Origin: an uncultured archaeon
GTDB taxonomy: Archaea > Asgardarchaeota > Thorarchaeia > Thorarchaeales > CAZPUN01
Direction of reading: 5' to 3'
Assembly: GCA_964589775.1 (NCBI GenBank)
Contig: CAZPUN010000023.1
Span: 120,001 to 152,000, forward strand
Length of the DNA: 32,000 bases
Of this stretch, positions 18,196 to 31,334 are shown piece by piece. Every line of letters starts with the position of its first letter. The first letter of the stretch is position 1. A program made the translations under genes and the position numbers. The notes beneath the pieces were generated by a model. The model saw only the letters and a list, made by a program, of their open reading frames with translations, was not told the origin of the DNA and ran no database searches.

Positions 18196-19449
18196 TTACT
18201 CTCCCCCTAATATTTCGTTTAATGCGTCTGTAATTAGTTCGACCAAAAAGTCTTCATTATATTCTTCAGGAATTGTAAGCTCTGATATGAATTCTCGGAC
18301 TTCCTCTTCTGGGTCCTCAATTAAATAATCTGTATCTTCTGTTGGATTTATTATATCGCCCATATCTTCTTTATATACCTCGTAGTCCCATGTAAATTGT
18401 ACAATATTATATTCGTCTGATTTCAAAATATCTGTTACATAATAACTCAAACGTGATTCTATTTCCCAAGATTTTGTAAGGCTTGTTTTTCCTTCAATTT
18501 TAATTTTCAGGCGTGCTGCAGTTTGAGGGTCAAAGGGTGCTTTCAGTCCAAGTTGTTCTAATATCTTCTCGATTCGGTTCAATATATTTTCTGCAATATC
18601 TTTATTCGTTATTTCAATCTCTTTGACATACATTGGTCTTTGAGTCGGAATTATTATCTTTTCCACAATTGGTTTCTTGCCCTTTTCTGCATTTACTAAT
18701 AGTATTCCTTTTTCATGTTTATATTCATCAAATCGCCATTTTTCTATTGAACCTGCGTAATATCCATTTGCTGTATACTGGTGCATGTGATGGTCATGTC
18801 CCAATGCTAAATAATCATAATTATGTTGCTTAATCTCAGGTGGTAGTGTTTCATCTAATTCCATTCCATGCGCAACAGCAATCGATGTTTTAGTTCCCGG
18901 TTTTTGCTGCGTTAATATCCATTGTTTATATATTTCACGTAGTTGTGGATTTTGTAGAGTGTCTCGCGATACATATGGAAATGCAAAAACTTCGAAATCA
19001 TCAAATTCGAATTTTAGTGGTTTCCGTTTATTTAATGCATCTTTAAGATCCACATAAGTTGCTATGTATATTTCTGGGAATGCATACTTAAATGATGAAA
19101 GTAATGATGCATCAATTCCCTTGTATAATCCATGATTGCCTTCAATAATTATTAGGGGCTTGCCTACTTTTTTGAAGTATTTTTCAAAAGTATCAAATGC
19201 GATTTCCCTTGCAACTTCACTAACCGGATACGGATTACGTTCCCATGGTGCATCGAATAAGTCTCCAGAATGAACTACAACATCATATTTATCTTTCATC
19301 TCAATTATTTTGTCAAATACTCTCTGGAATTGCTTATAGAAATCATCCTCAACCCATCGTGATCGTAATGTAACTGCCCAGCCATCTCTGACGCCATTCC
19401 GCTCTTTATGCCCTAAATGTGTATCTGATAAGTGAATTAATCTAACCAT
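18196..19449 (-). CDS. mre11: Mre11/SbcD metallophosphoesterase nuclease
   Basis: HLSDTHLG, SGDLFD, EGNH, AHG, YLALGHDH, YAGSIE...FDE. Confidence 0.92.
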   Translation of the reverse strand: MVRLIHLSDTHLGHKERNGVRDGWAVTLRSRWVEDDFYKQFQRVFDKIIEMKDKYDVVVHSGDLFDAPWERNPYPVSEVAREIAFDTFEKYFKKVGKPLIIIEGNHGLYKGIDASLLSSFKYAFPEIYIATYVDLKDALNKRKPLKFEFDDFEVFAFPYVSRDTLQNPQLREIYKQWILTQQKPGTKTSIAVAHGMELDETLPPEIKQHNYDYLALGHDHHMHQYTANGYYAGSIEKWRFDEYKHEKGILLVNAEKGKKPIVEKIIIPTQRPMYVKEIEITNKDIAENILNRIEKILEQLGLKAPFDPQTAARLKIKIEGKTSLTKSWEIESRLSYYVTDILKSDEYNIVQFTWDYEVYKEDMGDIINPTEDTDYLIEDPEEEVREFISELTIPEEYNEDFLVELITDALNEILGGE

Positions 19450-19461
19450 AAAACTTCCCCA

Positions 19462-21303
19462 TTAAAATTGAACATCTGGTTCATTATTATCTGTTAGTTC
19501 AAAATTATTTAACTCTTGTTGTATCATTTCAAATCTGTCTGGGAATCTAGGAACATTAAATGGTAATGGTGTACTGCGATAAGATGCTGTAAGTATTCCA
19601 TGCCCAACTTCAAGGGTATTATATTCTTCAGTAAATCCCGATAATGGTGCGCTTGCACTTTCTATTGCCGCACGTGCTTCTCTTTCATTGCCTAATCTTA
19701 AAAAGAACTGTGTATTTATTTGTGATAATATATCTGCATCTATTGTGCTCACCTGCTGGCTAATCACAACTAAACCTATACCAAACTTACGGCCTTGTCT
19801 AGAAATGTCTTTGAATAATGAACTTTGCCCTAATATTTCAGAATTCAAAATTTGTGGGGCTTCTTCAATTGTAATCAAGATAATCGGTAATGTTCGAATT
19901 TCTCTTAAAGTGTTATTTGATTCCCGATATATCTTCAGTGCTTTAGGTCTAAAATTATCCCAAAACTTTGCAGTCAGTCCCATTTTCGCTTTGTTTGTAA
20001 ATGAGTCTATGGAATCTGAACTTGCTAATGCTTGCCTTAAATTAAAAAGAATTCTTGCGACAATGGTTGTTACTAAGAATTGTTCATGTACTGACAAAAG
20101 TGATGTATTTATATCAATGATTCTTCCACTTTCTAATGCTTCAATGATTTGTGGTAATATCGATTCTTGAACTGGAATGTCCTTGAATATTCGTGACCTG
20201 CGCAGGAAATATAATCTTCTCTGTACTGCATTATGAGTTTGTTTTGTCTCGCCCTCTATAGGGTCATTATTGTTTAGAATCTCATTAATCCAATTATCTC
20301 CGAAAATTCCATATGCTCGATTCATATACGCTATTTGTAATGGATTTAATGAAAGGATAGATATGATATCCTTTGGCAGGATCTCTGTCCATGCTATTTG
20401 TAATTTACGACCATAATTTTTTAATTCATGTGGCATTCTTTCAGTTGAAGCTGTGAGATAGAAAAAGTCTCCAATTACATTATTTCGATCATTTGAGCTC
20501 ATTTCGTTTACAATATGTGCAATTCCTCTTCGATCTTCATCAGTTCCGGATCCCAATGCATATTCATCATGTGGATCAATTATCAAACTTCCAATTCTCG
20601 GAATATTAATCGTAGATGATTTAAGCGATCTAAAGTTCGACAGAATCATAGATGAAATTAGAACTTGCATCAAATTGCTTTTTCCAGCACCAGTTGTTCC
20701 AAATATTCCCATATGTGTTGCTAGATTTCGGACTGGTAAATTCATTTCTACATTTAGAACCGATTCTCCGGAAACTAGGTTTCCAAAATAAAGTTCGCCT
20801 GCAATCTGGGTCCCTAACAAATCACGAATAAAATCATCACTTATGCCCGCTTGCGGTACATATACTCGTGCGAGATGGTTTGGTATTCTACGTGGGCGTT
20901 TGAATTCCCATTTTCTTTTATTTATGTTGTATTCAGAGTATCCAATGAAGCTTCCCCTTATATCTAAAATCAAATATTGATTTGCATCTACAAAATAAGT
21001 ATCGTTCCTTCTAAGAAGATCTGTAGCAATATCTTCAAGATTTTTTATGTATGTGATACTAGGTGAAATTGAAATTGCTCTGAAGAAAAACACTCGCTCT
21101 ATGCCAATATCTTCATCCTTTGATGTTCTAATATAACTTGGAATAATAAATATTTCACCAATACTTGAATCATATAAATTCCCGATTACTTGCATCATAG
21201 ATTGGTCTCCGGATGCAAGCCTTCCGAAATAGTATCCTAATTCATCTTGGTGAAGTCTTAATTCGGGACCTAAATCTTGTTGGATATACGTGTTGTCTGA
21301 CAT
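19462..21303 (-). CDS. herA: HerA helicase/translocase (FtsK-HerA superfamily)
   Basis: HMGIFGTTGAGKSN, IIDPHDEY, ITIEEAP (Walker B), RQGRKFGIGLVVISQ, ILSQINT. Probable N-terminal HAS barrel. Confidence 0.92.
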   Translation of the reverse strand: MSDNTYIQQDLGPELRLHQDELGYYFGRLASGDQSMMQVIGNLYDSSIGEIFIIPSYIRTSKDEDIGIERVFFFRAISISPSITYIKNLEDIATDLLRRNDTYFVDANQYLILDIRGSFIGYSEYNINKRKWEFKRPRRIPNHLARVYVPQAGISDDFIRDLLGTQIAGELYFGNLVSGESVLNVEMNLPVRNLATHMGIFGTTGAGKSNLMQVLISSMILSNFRSLKSSTINIPRIGSLIIDPHDEYALGSGTDEDRRGIAHIVNEMSSNDRNNVIGDFFYLTASTERMPHELKNYGRKLQIAWTEILPKDIISILSLNPLQIAYMNRAYGIFGDNWINEILNNNDPIEGETKQTHNAVQRRLYFLRRSRIFKDIPVQESILPQIIEALESGRIIDINTSLLSVHEQFLVTTIVARILFNLRQALASSDSIDSFTNKAKMGLTAKFWDNFRPKALKIYRESNNTLREIRTLPIILITIEEAPQILNSEILGQSSLFKDISRQGRKFGIGLVVISQQVSTIDADILSQINTQFFLRLGNEREARAAIESASAPLSGFTEEYNTLEVGHGILTASYRSTPLPFNVPRFPDRFEMIQQELNNFELTDNNEPDVQF

Positions 21304-21318
21304 GATTTTTATCCTCCC

Positions 21319-22626
21319 TCATCTAATATGTATGAGCTCTCGTTGATTTAAAAACAGATTTGAGTTAAATCCGAGTCCGGTTGCAATTTCAATTAGCATA
21401 TTATATAATATGCGTTCAGTATCTCGTGATATCTTACAATTATTGTGAGCAACTGCAAGTGGAGCTGGATATCCTACCCAATATATACCTCGCGACATGA
21501 AATCTAAATCTTGGAATATTTGATGTTCATTCTCATGCAATGTGTTAATATCTTCATCATAAATATTTTCTCGCCACCATAACGCATCGAAATCAACTCG
21601 TAATGTTGGCTTGTTTGGATCAAGCTGGACTAAATACGGAACTGTTAATGGTGGTGGGATATATCTGCGATTTTCTAAAATTCTAAGGCCTTGCTCGCTT
21701 GGTATTCCTCCCGGCAGTCGAATATACCATCTGGAATTATTGCCAAAAATCTCATTTGCAATTGCTATAGCTTCATTTGTAAACGGAATTGTATGTGTTT
21801 TTGAGACCGCCATAACTATTACATTGTGGTCTCTCGCTGTTTTTAGTATATCTCTTAATAAATATCCAATTATGTCCGTGGGTAGCATAGTTGTTGGATC
21901 ATATTTAAAGCTTAATGAACCATCTAGTAGCATATATCGTAAATTGCTACCTTCAACTATTGCTCTCTTTGCGATTCCTAATTCTCCAATTCGCATTGAA
22001 GTTGAAAATAGATTTGCGGCTGAAATTGTAATTCCTTCAATTAGCATATCTTCATTAAATAACGGTTTATTCTCTATATTATAGTGTTTTTTCATTTCTT
22101 CATAATATGTATTGATAATTTTTTGAAAATCTGCAGCTGTTGGTTCTTCAATTCGGTTGTTTGTATCATCATATACAGGATAATATTCAATTAATTGTTC
22201 ATGAATATATCTAATAGGTTCTCCATCATCTTGGCTAATCCATTTTGTTTCTAGATGGCCTTTACTAAAAAAGTTAGGATTTTCTTCTTTTGATACATTA
22301 TGGAACAAGTTTCGTTCATTTGTTCCCGTATTATGTACCGCTAAATAATAACTTTCAACAATTATATCAATATCTTCAATTGTGACCAGTGGGTATACAC
22401 CAGAGCCATCTACAGCTGCAATATTAAAATCATCTGGTTTTCCGAGTTCATTTGTGTATTTATGAGAAATCTTTAGTGGTTCGATTTTTTGGATTAATTC
22501 ATTCATAATGCGTTCGCGGTCTAGTTCAAATCTTTTCTTGTTTTGCTCTCGTGTCCGCCTAATATCCAATAATGTTGCAGTAATTTGTCGTCTGAACTCA
22601 TTTTGAAAAATTCTTATTAGTGACAT
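21319..22626 (-). CDS. nurA: NurA 5'-3' nuclease
   Basis: IAAVDGS, GE, LLDGSL, AVSK, GYPAPLAVAHN. Located next to herA. Confidence 0.9.
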   Translation of the reverse strand: MSLIRIFQNEFRRQITATLLDIRRTREQNKKRFELDRERIMNELIQKIEPLKISHKYTNELGKPDDFNIAAVDGSGVYPLVTIEDIDIIVESYYLAVHNTGTNERNLFHNVSKEENPNFFSKGHLETKWISQDDGEPIRYIHEQLIEYYPVYDDTNNRIEEPTAADFQKIINTYYEEMKKHYNIENKPLFNEDMLIEGITISAANLFSTSMRIGELGIAKRAIVEGSNLRYMLLDGSLSFKYDPTTMLPTDIIGYLLRDILKTARDHNVIVMAVSKTHTIPFTNEAIAIANEIFGNNSRWYIRLPGGIPSEQGLRILENRRYIPPPLTVPYLVQLDPNKPTLRVDFDALWWRENIYDEDINTLHENEHQIFQDLDFMSRGIYWVGYPAPLAVAHNNCKISRDTERILYNMLIEIATGLGFNSNLFLNQRELIHIR

Positions 22627-23505: not shown

Positions 23506-23622
23506 AACTTTTTTATAATTCATTTATAATATATATTTACAAAACAATAAAATAACGTCGTAAAAATCCATAAATAGTTGTTTGAATATATTTATATTAC
23601 GCAATATGTAGGGGTGAGAAAA

Positions 23623-25401
23623 TTGTCCCAAGATGAAGTAAAAAAAGTGATTATTGATCTTGAAGAAACTGAAGAGACGGAAATCGGCGAACACAGCGAG
23701 CAGCTTGGTATAGCTGTTGAGGGTGTCCTGACCGTAAAGAATGTCTCTGAGCAACACAGAATCTGGAATACCAAAGTAGATGTATCTGAAGGCCGAGATT
23801 CCACAGACTTTGATGCTGACAGTCTGCATGTTGGAGAAATAAATCCACAAGATAAGTGGTCTACAAATTATGGTGTGAAATCTGAGGCACCAATACTCAA
23901 AGTAACTGAAATATTCGATGCATGTAGAACTGTAGAGTCAGAGGATCCGCATTATGCCTATGTGTATGGTTTTACAAATCCTGTAAAATTTACAATTACT
24001 CTCAAGAACGAAATCGATGTTCAGATTGATGACATTGTGCTTAAAAAAACCATTCCTCCTGAAATTACCTCTGTAAAAGTTGAAAATGCAAGTGTAGGTA
24101 ATGCGGTGTTTGATGAAGAGAATCATGTTGTAACATGGAGTGACTTCATTCTATTTCCGGGCGAAAGTGCTACTTTAGAGCTTGTTGCGGATGCTGAGAT
24201 GCCTGATGTATCTGTCAAGAATGCCGGTGAAATCGTTGTAACGTACAAGGCAGAAAATGCCCAGAAAAGCAGTCTCAATCCTGACTTGACAGCATTAACA
24301 GAAGTTCTTGTAGGTATCGATAAAGAAGAAACTGAACCAAATCACTGGGTATGTACTCTTGAATTCGAAAACACAACTGATATCCTTGTGCGTCTAGATA
24401 AGGCTGAAGTGTTCTATACTGATGAAAGTGGAAATACACAAAAGATGATTGATGAGGAACCACATTTAGAAATTCCACCAGGTGAGACATGGAGTAAATC
24501 TTTTGAACTTGATTCAAAGACACCTCCAGAATGCAGTCACAATGTCGTACATACACCGGTAAAAACCATAACTAAGCGTGTAATTGGTACTGTAAAGAAA
24601 GTTGCCCAGACTGTGCCTGTCTATCGCGTTGAGCTGAACAAAGTATTTGATCCACCTGAAGTAAATAGCTTCGATAAGACTCCAGTTGATGTCACCCTAG
24701 AAGCAATTAATGCTGGAACCGCACCGTTGAACAAGGTTGTCATTATTGACACAATTCCTGAGGATGTCATGCCACCAAAGAAAGAACATATTACCATAAT
24801 GATTGGTGACCGTGAATACGATGGTGAATTCGATTTCCTTCTGGATCCAAATGATGAAAATCCTGAGAATGCTCATACTATGACAATTACACTAAATCTA
24901 AGTGATGATTGGATTCTCCAACCGGACCAGAAAGTTGTTGTTAACTATGCAATTATGGCTTGGAAACCAAGACCTGAGAAAACTTATCCTGCGCCTCTTA
25001 CTGTAAAAGGTAATGTGCTTCCTGAGGGAATCTTTGCTGAGGTTTCTACTCCTGAAGAAGAACCCAAATTACTCATCAAGTATCGAAGACGTCGTATCAG
25101 CGCATTCAAAGCAATCAATAAGGGCAGTCAGTCCGGTCAATTTGTCATACCATTACGAATTGAAAACCGCGGTGAAGTTACTATTGAAAATGTAGTAGTC
25201 AAGGATTGGATTCCAAAAGGCTACAAGTTAGTATCAGTTGAGCCTGACGATTTGCAACCCGAGACACAAGCAGTCGAAGATGGTACACTACTTATTTGGA
25301 CCTTTGTTAAGATGTTCCCAGGCGACAAGAAAGAGATCAAATATGTTGCAGAGGGTGAAGGCGAATACGAACGCCGTGATCCTGAAGTAAGTGGAGATTA
25401 G
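23623..25401 (+). CDS. Acidic all-beta multidomain protein: mu-homology-like domain plus DUF11/Ig-like domains, no signal peptide
   Basis: Repeated [IL].N.G.....V...D.IP...W...PG units. TTG 23623 follows GGGGTGA (the track start is 23578). Confidence 0.65.
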   Translation: MSQDEVKKVIIDLEETEETEIGEHSEQLGIAVEGVLTVKNVSEQHRIWNTKVDVSEGRDSTDFDADSLHVGEINPQDKWSTNYGVKSEAPILKVTEIFDACRTVESEDPHYAYVYGFTNPVKFTITLKNEIDVQIDDIVLKKTIPPEITSVKVENASVGNAVFDEENHVVTWSDFILFPGESATLELVADAEMPDVSVKNAGEIVVTYKAENAQKSSLNPDLTALTEVLVGIDKEETEPNHWVCTLEFENTTDILVRLDKAEVFYTDESGNTQKMIDEEPHLEIPPGETWSKSFELDSKTPPECSHNVVHTPVKTITKRVIGTVKKVAQTVPVYRVELNKVFDPPEVNSFDKTPVDVTLEAINAGTAPLNKVVIIDTIPEDVMPPKKEHITIMIGDREYDGEFDFLLDPNDENPENAHTMTITLNLSDDWILQPDQKVVVNYAIMAWKPRPEKTYPAPLTVKGNVLPEGIFAEVSTPEEEPKLLIKYRRRRISAFKAINKGSQSGQFVIPLRIENRGEVTIENVVVKDWIPKGYKLVSVEPDDLQPETQAVEDGTLLIWTFVKMFPGDKKEIKYVAEGEGEYERRDPEVSGD

Positions 25402-30452: not shown

Positions 30453-31334
30453 GTGGCCACATTGATAAGAGAATTACACGTCTTTGATAAAGAAAAATTG
30501 GTCTTCAAGGATTCAATAGTTCCTACAAAAGGAATTGATTTGGAAAAGATTCTTTACGTTACAGTAAGTTCTGCATTTCAGCAAAAGGAATGGCGAATTG
30601 ATAGTCTTGAAATTTCACGCTATAGATTTACTTACACAAATGCCCATGGGTATGCTTTTGTTATGACGTCTGATAGGGCCGCCACAAAAGAGAAAATTGA
30701 AGAAGCTTTTATGAAGGTAATTACTGAATTTGTCAAGATTTGCATGGATTCAAAATGCAATGATGAAGATACAAAAGAAGACTTTAAGGATGCTTTTAGA
30801 CGGATTGCAGGACGATTGCCCATTAAATTCTGTCTTGCAGGACATGGTGGAACTGGAAAAACTACATTGTTAGAACTTGCTATTCTGCCTACAAAAGGCC
30901 CCCCTCAGAAATATGTTCCTACATTCTTTGGCGATAAAGCCATGTTAAAATCAGATTTTGATCCATATGTACTTTCACTATTTGACCTTGGTGGTCAGGA
31001 TCGATTTGTACAAGAATGGAGCAAAATAATTCGAGCGAGTAGTGGCGTAATTGTTGTAAGTGATTCTACACCCGCAAATATATCTTGGCTACGAAGAGTT
31101 GCATTGCCAGTTCTCAAAGCGAATTTGCCATATTCTCGTGCAATTGCTCTTGCGAATAAGCAAGATCTGCCCGGTGCATTATCCCCTGAAGAAGTAGAGC
31201 GCCGTCTCGGAATTCCCGCATATCCTATGATTGCGAATCGGAAAGAAAATCGCGATAAATGGCTGAAATTGCTAAAGGATTTATTGTTCGAGAATTTAAG
31301 ATTTATAGTTATAGGAGATGTTCCCGATGAGTGA
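30453..31334 (+). CDS. Longin-like domain fused to an Arf-like small GTPase
   Basis: G1 GHGGTGKT, G2 YVPT, G3 DLGGQ, G4 ANKQDLPGALS. The N-terminal ~120 aa show a longin beta-beta-alpha-beta-beta-beta-alpha-alpha pattern. Confidence 0.88.
   Translation: MATLIRELHVFDKEKLVFKDSIVPTKGIDLEKILYVTVSSAFQQKEWRIDSLEISRYRFTYTNAHGYAFVMTSDRAATKEKIEEAFMKVITEFVKICMDSKCNDEDTKEDFKDAFRRIAGRLPIKFCLAGHGGTGKTTLLELAILPTKGPPQKYVPTFFGDKAMLKSDFDPYVLSLFDLGGQDRFVQEWSKIIRASSGVIVVSDSTPANISWLRRVALPVLKANLPYSRAIALANKQDLPGALSPEEVERRLGIPAYPMIANRKENRDKWLKLLKDLLFENLRFIVIGDVPDE

Follow-up and report, generated by a model that had tools for sequence, protein, structure and literature searches.

The mu-adaptin/delta-COP homology domain (mu homology domain, MHD) is the cargo- and partner-reading module of each eukaryotic adaptor or coat of the AP (adaptor protein)/COPI/TSET family. 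The mu2 subunit of AP-2 docks on phosphatidylinositol 4,5-bisphosphate by means of basic patches and holds the tyrosine of YxxPhi motifs in a pocket that we take to consist of F174, D176, K203, W421 and R423, whereas the non-mu MHDs act as hubs for proteins and peptide motifs and not as YxxPhi readers. Here we describe a stand-alone MHD protein of 592 amino acids from an uncultured archaeon of the Asgardarchaeota (Thorarchaeia; Thorarchaeales; CAZPUN01). Its gene (23623..25401, plus strand; TTG start, stop codon at 25399-25401) lies in a stretch of 32,000 nucleotides, positions 120,001 to 152,000 of the forward strand of contig CAZPUN010000023.1 (GenBank assembly GCA_964589775.1), which was analysed as a whole and is referred to below as the window; all coordinates count from its first nucleotide.

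The closest described proteins are the Asgard Adap_comp_sub (PF00928) proteins that Eme et al. 2023 (Nature 618:992, PMC10307638) put forward as candidate eukaryotic signature proteins, given in Supplementary section 4.3.1 and in a candidate table of 44 entries, and described there as sparse, stand-alone and never fused to Clat_adaptor_s; the same study reported that each of the five AP domain types occurs among Asgard archaea. Two structure-based Asgard surveys (PMC12962969, PMC13734099) mention AP homologues in passing, as patchy. Text searches for Asgard together with the mu homology domain or Adap_comp_sub found no paper text, and the literature on muniscins, delta-COP or TSET together with Asgard yielded nothing relevant. 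When compared by motif and length, the Jord, Hel (1782-nt gene) and Thor candidates share an R-I-W-N-type N-terminal motif, the subdomain B stretch and the overall length, and on these sequence features the protein studied here is a member of the same family and probably an orthologue of the listed candidates. Since that family is already catalogued, the novelty is modest and the basic finding stands in the literature. The first-pass annotation of this DNA had called the architecture unfamiliar from eukaryotes; the arrangement is indeed unusual in that comparison, while the family itself had been listed in 2023.

Predicted fold and domain architecture

To obtain a structural model, we ran AlphaFold2 on an alignment of 44 diverse full-length relatives, which are 20-93% identical to the query. 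The resulting model (mean pLDDT 95, pTM 0.78) was compared with the PDB using Foldseek and then VIA-align. The best VIA-align match is AP-2 mu2 (5wrk_A; Z 18.9, rmsd 3.0 Å, 225 aligned residues), with model residues 5-328 aligning to mu2 169-435, i.e., the complete MHD. All of the 50 best VIA-align rows are MHDs (Z 15.5-18.9), including the mu subunits of AP-1, AP-3 and AP-4 (Z 15.5-17.7), SGIP1 (5awt, Z 16.9) and delta-COP (4o8q, Z 16.4); the mu MHDs superpose at about 3 Å over 210-229 residues. Foldseek likewise returned compact MHD matches, with TM-scores by target of up to 0.71 (AP-3 mu3A, 4ikn), along with multi-immunoglobulin (Ig) proteins whose global rmsd is meaningless. As the alignment takes in the eukaryotic domain from end to end, the chain of the model goes back to subdomain A after subdomain B, which is the nested two-subdomain topology of the MHD. 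The front half of the protein is therefore predicted with high confidence to adopt a complete MHD fold. The first-pass annotation had proposed an MHD from the sequence by itself and named a row of independent tandem Ig beads as the outcome that would speak against it; the model instead shows one sandwich nested in another.

The first part of subdomain A is encoded at 23635..23946 (residues ~5-108); its approximate boundaries follow the model strands and the start of the structural alignment at residue 5, and E15, G34, N40, W48, Y83 and E96 are conserved in the family. Subdomain B follows at 23947..24288 (residues ~109-222), delimited by profile alignments to mu and delta-COP, by the PF01345 match and by hhalign, and contains W172, which is invariant in the family. 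An additional beta-sandwich of about 87 aa, with DSSP strands at 229-312 and conserved E236, W242 and P302, is found at 24301..24561 (residues ~227-313). It is succeeded by the closing strand or strands of subdomain A at 24562..24606 (residues ~314-328; predicted strand 314-326). The structural alignments end here, with model residue 328 at mu2 435, the last mu2 residue. Of the 324 model residues spanned by the mu2 alignment, 225 are aligned, so that ~99 are unaligned, and Foldseek alignments come in two sizes, of ~240 columns (TM-score 0.62) and ~340 columns (TM-score 0.70). The two sizes fit an insertion right before the last MHD strand, although the exact point at which the extra sandwich enters the domain is placed tentatively. 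The remainder of the protein comprises Ig domain 3 (24616..25086, residues ~332-488), which is CnaA/CLIPPER-like in the C-terminal model, and Ig domain 4 (25093..25398, residues ~491-592), which gives the best DUF11/CLIPPER match; all these segments lie on the plus strand. An inserted sandwich, a closing strand at ITKRVIGTV (residues 316-324, within the predicted strand) and two further sandwiches had all been foreseen at these positions. The earlier structural interpretation proved correct and unusually precise.

Sequence relationship to eukaryotic MHDs

The structural likeness is accompanied by sequence similarity at the level of the family. In a search of PDB sequences, positions 108-215 of the family profile align to residues 122-231 of AP-3 mu (4ikn, E 0.0027), and the same segment aligns to AP-2 mu, AP-1 mu and delta-COP, with W172 falling on the conserved mu Trp. 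Among the matches of the N-terminal profile to PDB sequences, 26/28 are mu or delta-COP, those to mu chains having E-values of 0.0027-0.06. Together with the uniform MHD identity of the 50 best structural matches, this places the likeness far beyond chance. PF00928 is detected at E <= 0.01 in 20 of 44 family N-terminal regions (best 2e-10), and seven close homologues score 24-27 bits against its cut-off of 31.6 bits, one of them over profile positions 15-194. Homology of the Asgard protein to the eukaryotic MHDs is what we infer from these results.

Of three segments that had been likened to eukaryotic MHD sequences, the second and third (residues about 133-219) were recovered, including W172, by the alignment of the family profile to AP-3 mu. 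The first (residues 9-39) sits where the structural alignment starts, model residue 5 corresponding to mu2 169, while by sequence it amounts to a sub-significant stretch of a hidden Markov model (HMM) match.

A Pfam search found no longin-type domain (PF01217, Clat_adaptor_s) in the protein, whose chain begins at the first MHD strand, and it is not classed as a mu subunit because an N-terminal longin domain is absent. The 110-170-aa N-terminal extensions of ten paralogues were considered as candidates for a hidden longin domain and rejected, as they gave noise only (best IMD, E 0.0038).

Relationship to DUF11/CLIPPER domains

DUF11-like repeats, also anticipated from the sequence, are well supported and are the only domains that Pfam and NCBIfam recognise in the protein: PF01345 reaches 53.3 bits (cut-off 24.6) over three stretches, strongest at residues 506-577, and NCBIfam TIGR01451 matches as well. 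In the N-terminal region PF01345 matches subdomain B (residues 119-212, E 2.7e-5), and in 24 of 44 members the N-terminal segment that matches PF00928 matches DUF11 too. Profile-profile comparison with hhalign relates subdomain B to domain 4 (97.4%) and to domain 3 (95.4%), and domains 3 and 4 to each other (97.4%). Subdomain A gave nothing comparable with subdomain B or domains 3-4 (0.8-5.5%), its one short match being to the inserted sandwich (23 columns, 73%). These PF01345 and hhalign results indicate that subdomain B in this family is an Ig domain of the DUF11 type enclosed in a sandwich of a different kind, a statement that we encountered in no paper of the literature searched. The link is compatible both with common ancestry with the eukaryotic MHDs and with a generic Ig origin of the likeness.

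Residues 329-592 were modelled separately (pLDDT 94.8) and compared with the PDB without Foldseek. Domain 3, the first strand of which bears the nearly invariant K340, is similar to the sandwiches of CnaA-type pilins, CLIPPER domains and cohesins (SpaD, Z 13.8; TTHA1873, Z 13.6; CLIPPER 9ifr, Z 10.8). Domain 4 superposes on subdomain B of AP-2 mu2 itself (7ohz_B 286-391; Z 10.4, 2.4 Å) and is weakly matched by profile to the ear of gamma-adaptin (1gyv, E 0.0028). A feature search of the ESM Atlas returned DUF11 clusters only and no eukaryotic family. The protein thus has the Pfam score and the CnaA-like Ig fold of DUF11/CLIPPER proteins, and the exported surface context of such proteins is absent.

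Properties of the gene and protein

The start at TTG 23623 is preceded at 5-6 nt by a Shine-Dalgarno-like motif (GGGGTGA) with an AT-rich spacer. The longest open reading frame at the locus is 23578..25401 (+), and GTG 23614 (595 aa) or TTG 23578 (607 aa) are possible in-frame starts judging by sequence; annotated proteins of 595 and 607 aa are present in a 92%-identical cluster. There is one full copy of the gene in the 2.16-Mb genome, which is 96.75% complete, making it a single-copy gene for a full-length archaeal MHD protein that could help to show what an archaeal MHD binds, whether it contacts membranes and whether it docks on the neighbouring MBL-fold protein.

The product has a pI of 4.56 and a net charge of about -50, with each domain acidic, and the secondary structure of the model assigned by DSSP consists of strands only. 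Hydropathy over 19 residues peaks at 1.12, and a hydropathy scan found no signal peptide, transmembrane helix or anchor in the protein and no hydrophobic N-terminus in 268/270 relatives. The acidic, all-beta and non-secreted character ascribed to it at the outset accordingly stands, and secretion, the other outcome named as adverse, found no support. We conclude that this is a soluble, cytoplasmic, conserved and non-enzymatic beta protein. The two relatives with an N-terminal hydrophobic helix, P0222 (residues 5-35) and P0206 (residues 13-38), may, from their sequences, be membrane-anchored versions of the family.

Phyletic distribution

To establish how widely the family occurs, a six-frame search was run over 400 genomes of the phylum, and detected it in 357 at E <= 1e-10. 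It is present in 77/90 high-quality genomes and in 80 of the 85 genera. The genomic matches are mostly full length and free of stops, and genomes of one large family carry 3-4 copies each. The family is near-universal in Asgard genomes and not sparse. A single in-frame TAG interrupts one orthologue from the same order (G318:C105:179285-181054, minus strand) that is otherwise full length; this may reflect an error of sequencing, decay into a pseudogene or recoding.

An exhaustive search of 1.84 billion representative sequences retrieved 322 relatives, 222 of them below 1e-10, and every named sequence relative is from Asgard archaea. Close homologues carry the labels Thorarchaeota, Lokiarchaeota, Odinarchaeota, Jordarchaeales, Ranarchaeia and Promethearchaeota, a Jordarchaeales homologue (P0125/P0274) being found at E 5.6e-97. 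In other Asgard lineages, paralogues are extended at the N-terminus by proline-rich tracts or by a conserved helical region of ~110-160 aa, and paralogue extensions at the C-terminus are a CxxC...CxxC zinc ribbon or a helical tail of ~115 aa. Family extensions are carried at the N-termini of relatives P0175 and P0178 and at the C-termini of P0129, P0138 and P0140 and of P0131, P0133 and P0135. Such modular extensions are as expected for an interaction hub.

A shape search of the ESM Atlas recovered a cluster of 776-aa proteins that superposes on residues 1-519 (TM-score 0.73, 484 aligned, 3.3 Å). This cluster has DUF11 and AF2028_C matches and is labelled mostly Thermoplasmatota, with labels from 16/52 members. 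These Thermoplasmatota-type proteins were not detected by the sequence search, in which the named relatives were Asgard only. An MHD-like architecture may, on the evidence of these models, also occur outside Asgard archaea.

Gene neighbourhood and a candidate partner

The genes of the window around the MHD gene are of the archaeal housekeeping kind and comprise a NurA-position gene, HerA, Mre11, Rad50, a metallo-beta-lactamase (MBL)-fold gene, ABCE1/RLI, CofE, an archaeal ThrRS and an Arf-like GTPase. The MBL-fold gene (PF13483; 22801..23505, plus strand, 234 aa) is directly upstream of the MHD gene and co-oriented with it. Before this pair, on the minus strand, lies the NurA-position/HerA/Mre11/Rad50 run (16104-22626), made up of a 435-aa open reading frame without a Pfam match, HerA (DUF87), Mre11 (Metallophos) and Rad50, which is short (617 aa) and has a zinc hook; next comes a gene resembling PMT_2 glycosyltransferases. 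In Thor and in 'Odin'-labelled metagenome-assembled genomes (MAGs), too, this block is found ahead of the MBL-MHD pair.

A comparison of loci found the MBL-fold gene upstream of the MHD gene in three families, f2 (Thor), f15 (Jordarchaeales) and f16, as well as in an 'Odinarchaeota'-labelled MAG; the other flanks differ, and the MBL-fold gene is the only neighbour conserved beyond the order. Copies from Jordarchaeales and f16 keep the HxHxDH motif (e.g., THSHPDH), whereas the Thor-type copies, including that of the window, have lost it (TVDQEES) together with other His positions. From their sequences the Thor-type copies look like pseudoenzymes, and with HxHxDH lost the MBL protein of the window is probably a partner without catalytic activity.

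Five genomes of the same order, from two genera and 90-99% complete, have no MHD gene (0/5 with an MHD-only profile at E <= 1e-3). Their best MBL matches score 78-88 bits, the level of paralogues, while in MHD-bearing genomes the adjacent orthologue scores 320-366 bits and paralogues 22-75 bits. The MBL and MHD genes thus appear to have been lost together; with two genera concerned, this represents at most two events.

Complex prediction for the MBL and MHD proteins gave an ipSAE of 0.53 (runs 0.56, 0.48 and 0.53), i.e., a verdict of weak support, against 0.00 for the best of three controls; the runs share at least 83% of contacts, with partner pLDDT >= 88. The ipSAE mark is reached by 58/80 solved complexes and 2/110 mismatched pairs, of which 7/80 and both passing mismatches fall at or below 0.60, counts that hold only roughly here as our own alignments were used for the prediction. 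Taking the predicted interface together with the genomic evidence, we put the chances that the two proteins bind at roughly even.

Two further candidates were set aside. The gene upstream of the distant homologue P0144 (L007) was rejected as an MBL-fold gene, as it aligns poorly and has a crotonase-like look. The gene at 30453-31334 (+) of the window encodes a 293-aa protein with an Arf/Ras-type GTPase domain in residues 124-255 and an N-terminal extension of ~120 aa; a link between the MHD gene and this nearby longin/Arf-like GTPase gene was rejected because the proximity is not conserved at Thor, Loki, Jord and 'Odin' loci, and it is treated as a coincidence of this genome. At a locus of a Lokiarchaeota MAG (L002:1-5465, minus strand), a gene whose called product measures 9,975 aa, and for which Pfam has no match on record, runs off the locus end; it ends ~2.5 kb from the homologue, with two genes between.

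Functional interpretation

We somewhat favor the view that the protein is a soluble interaction scaffold built on an MHD and, in this lineage, paired with the MBL-fold protein. Its architecture would consist of a subdomain A sandwich with B nested in it, a third sandwich before the closing strand and two Ig domains thereafter. The most likely mode of action would be that of the non-mu MHDs (muniscins, stonins and delta-COP), i.e., a rigid beta platform for partner proteins or short motifs, with the roles of enzyme or membrane binder being less favored. In this lineage and in two other Asgard families the platform would probably work with the directly upstream MBL-fold protein. Binding of partners or peptides, like any part in membrane traffic, is suggested by analogy with the eukaryotic domains.

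Several observations weigh against parts of this interpretation. The evidence for the fold is a predicted model. A Pfam scan of the protein itself gave no PF00928 match, so that the sequence support is at the family level and mostly below the Pfam threshold. D12 aligns with mu2 D176 only in a non-significant HMM stretch, the position being Asp in 17/44 members, and neither a Trp nor an Arg is conserved in the closing strand among the 44. The MBL pairing was not seen at 13 loci of ten other families, and the complex score falls in a zone where, unless the pairing was likely from the outset, predictions prove wrong more often than right.

The alternative with the next strongest claim, which we regard as unlikely yet well above the remaining two, is that the protein is a true component of membrane traffic, a primitive cargo adaptor or coat subunit that reads cytosolic tails in concert with Arf-like GTPases, longin proteins and adaptin-like solenoids. 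It would account directly for a full MHD fold common to AP mu, delta-COP and the muniscins and for the weak likeness of the C-terminal Ig domain to the gamma-adaptin ear and AP3B1_C, and it draws further on the five AP domain types reported in Asgard archaea (Eme et al. 2023), on the GTPase gene 5 kb away and on a 2025 preprint describing intracellular vesicles in a Heimdallarchaeon. That vesicle-bearing archaeon, however, is said in the same preprint to be without the proposed trafficking complexes, and no coat or GTPase gene is conserved next to the MHD gene in Thor, Loki and Jord loci, the one conserved neighbour being an MBL-fold protein. A family of similar structure in Thermoplasmatota also speaks against it, as do the acidity of each domain, the variability of the YxxPhi pocket position and the absence of a fused longin domain. 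The charge, the pocket position, the missing longin domain and the absence of coat neighbours are the reasons why we rank the scaffold over a membrane cargo adaptor.

The remaining explanations turn on the Ig character of the protein. The MHD likeness could reflect a generic Ig superfold, with the protein being a cytosolic DUF11-type array, one domain of which sits inside another by chance. The profile homology of subdomain B with the protein's own DUF11 domains, the DUF11 match on the PF00928 segment in 24/44 N-terminal regions, the superposition of domain 4 on mu2 subdomain B and the exclusive DUF11 identity of the Atlas feature neighbours all suit this explanation. It would nevertheless leave unexpected a Z of 18.9 across the two subdomains, nested in the same way and aligned at either terminus; moreover, the top 50 rows are MHDs throughout, with pilins and integrins appearing only as scattered single domains, and the sequence matches are specific to mu and delta-COP and align the conserved Trp. 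We therefore hold it to be improbable, and it would be compatible with homology if the eukaryotic subdomain B itself derives from a DUF11-type domain. Least credible by far is export of the protein to serve at the surface, in the S-layer or as an adhesin, as most DUF11/CLIPPER proteins do: the domains are characteristic of the stalks of fibrillar adhesins (bioRxiv 10.1101/2025.04.25.650565) and domain 3 resembles CnaA-type pilin domains, but neither this protein nor 268/270 relatives have a signal, transmembrane segment or anchor in the hydropathy scan, the chain starts directly at the first MHD strand, and the zinc-ribbon and proline-rich variants are typical of intracellular proteins. In our ranking the scaffold with its MBL partner accordingly stands first, before the membrane cargo adaptor, the nested Ig array and the surface protein.

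Evolutionary implications and comparison with known systems

A broader scenario, which we offer as speculative and consider rather doubtful, is that this near-universal Asgard protein represents the pre-eukaryotic ancestor of the AP mu, delta-COP and muniscin MHDs. The domain would have been born by the nesting of a DUF11/CLIPPER-type Ig domain, the present subdomain B, in another sandwich; it would originally have been part of a soluble two-protein module with an MBL partner and would have been recruited to coats later by fusion to a longin domain. The results obtained here also advise against taking an MHD as a sign of vesicle coats.

Among the known systems, the AP mu subunits (AP-2 mu2, 5wrk and 1bw8; AP-1, AP-3 and AP-4) match the fold over the whole domain (Z 17-19) and show weak but specific similarity in subdomain B, including the Trp. 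The Asgard protein differs from them in having no longin domain, in the additional sandwich of ~87 aa and the two Ig domains, in its acidity and in the variable Asp position of the YxxPhi pocket; as to the tetramer of an AP complex, the neighbours conserved at the examined loci include neither an adaptin-like nor a sigma-like gene. The muniscins (SGIP1/FCHo/Syp1) and delta-COP match in fold as well (SGIP1 5awt, Z 16.9; delta-COP 4o8q, Z 16.4). However, their MHDs are C-terminal, are combined with F-BAR, APA or longin parts and act at membranes, whereas the Asgard MHD stands at the N-terminus, ahead of Ig domains, and lacks a membrane-binding module. To the DUF11/CLIPPER adhesins (PDB 9ifr) the likeness lies in the Pfam match, the CnaA-like Ig fold and the profile homology of subdomain B; these adhesins are exported tandem stalks, often with isopeptide bonds, in contrast to a cytoplasmic protein in which one copy is nested to form an MHD.

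With respect to the Asgard candidates themselves, the present results sharpen the published view: the family is near-universal, its subdomain B is a detectable relative of DUF11, and a candidate partner is lost along with the gene. Neither the full architecture nor the DUF11 relationship nor the MBL pairing turned up in the literature searched, and the additions made here, namely near-universality, the relation of subdomain B to DUF11 and the MBL pairing with joint absence, are each testable. Whereas Eme et al. 2023 recorded Pfam domain matches only, of sparse occurrence, the whole-protein profile used here captures the family in 357/400 genomes.

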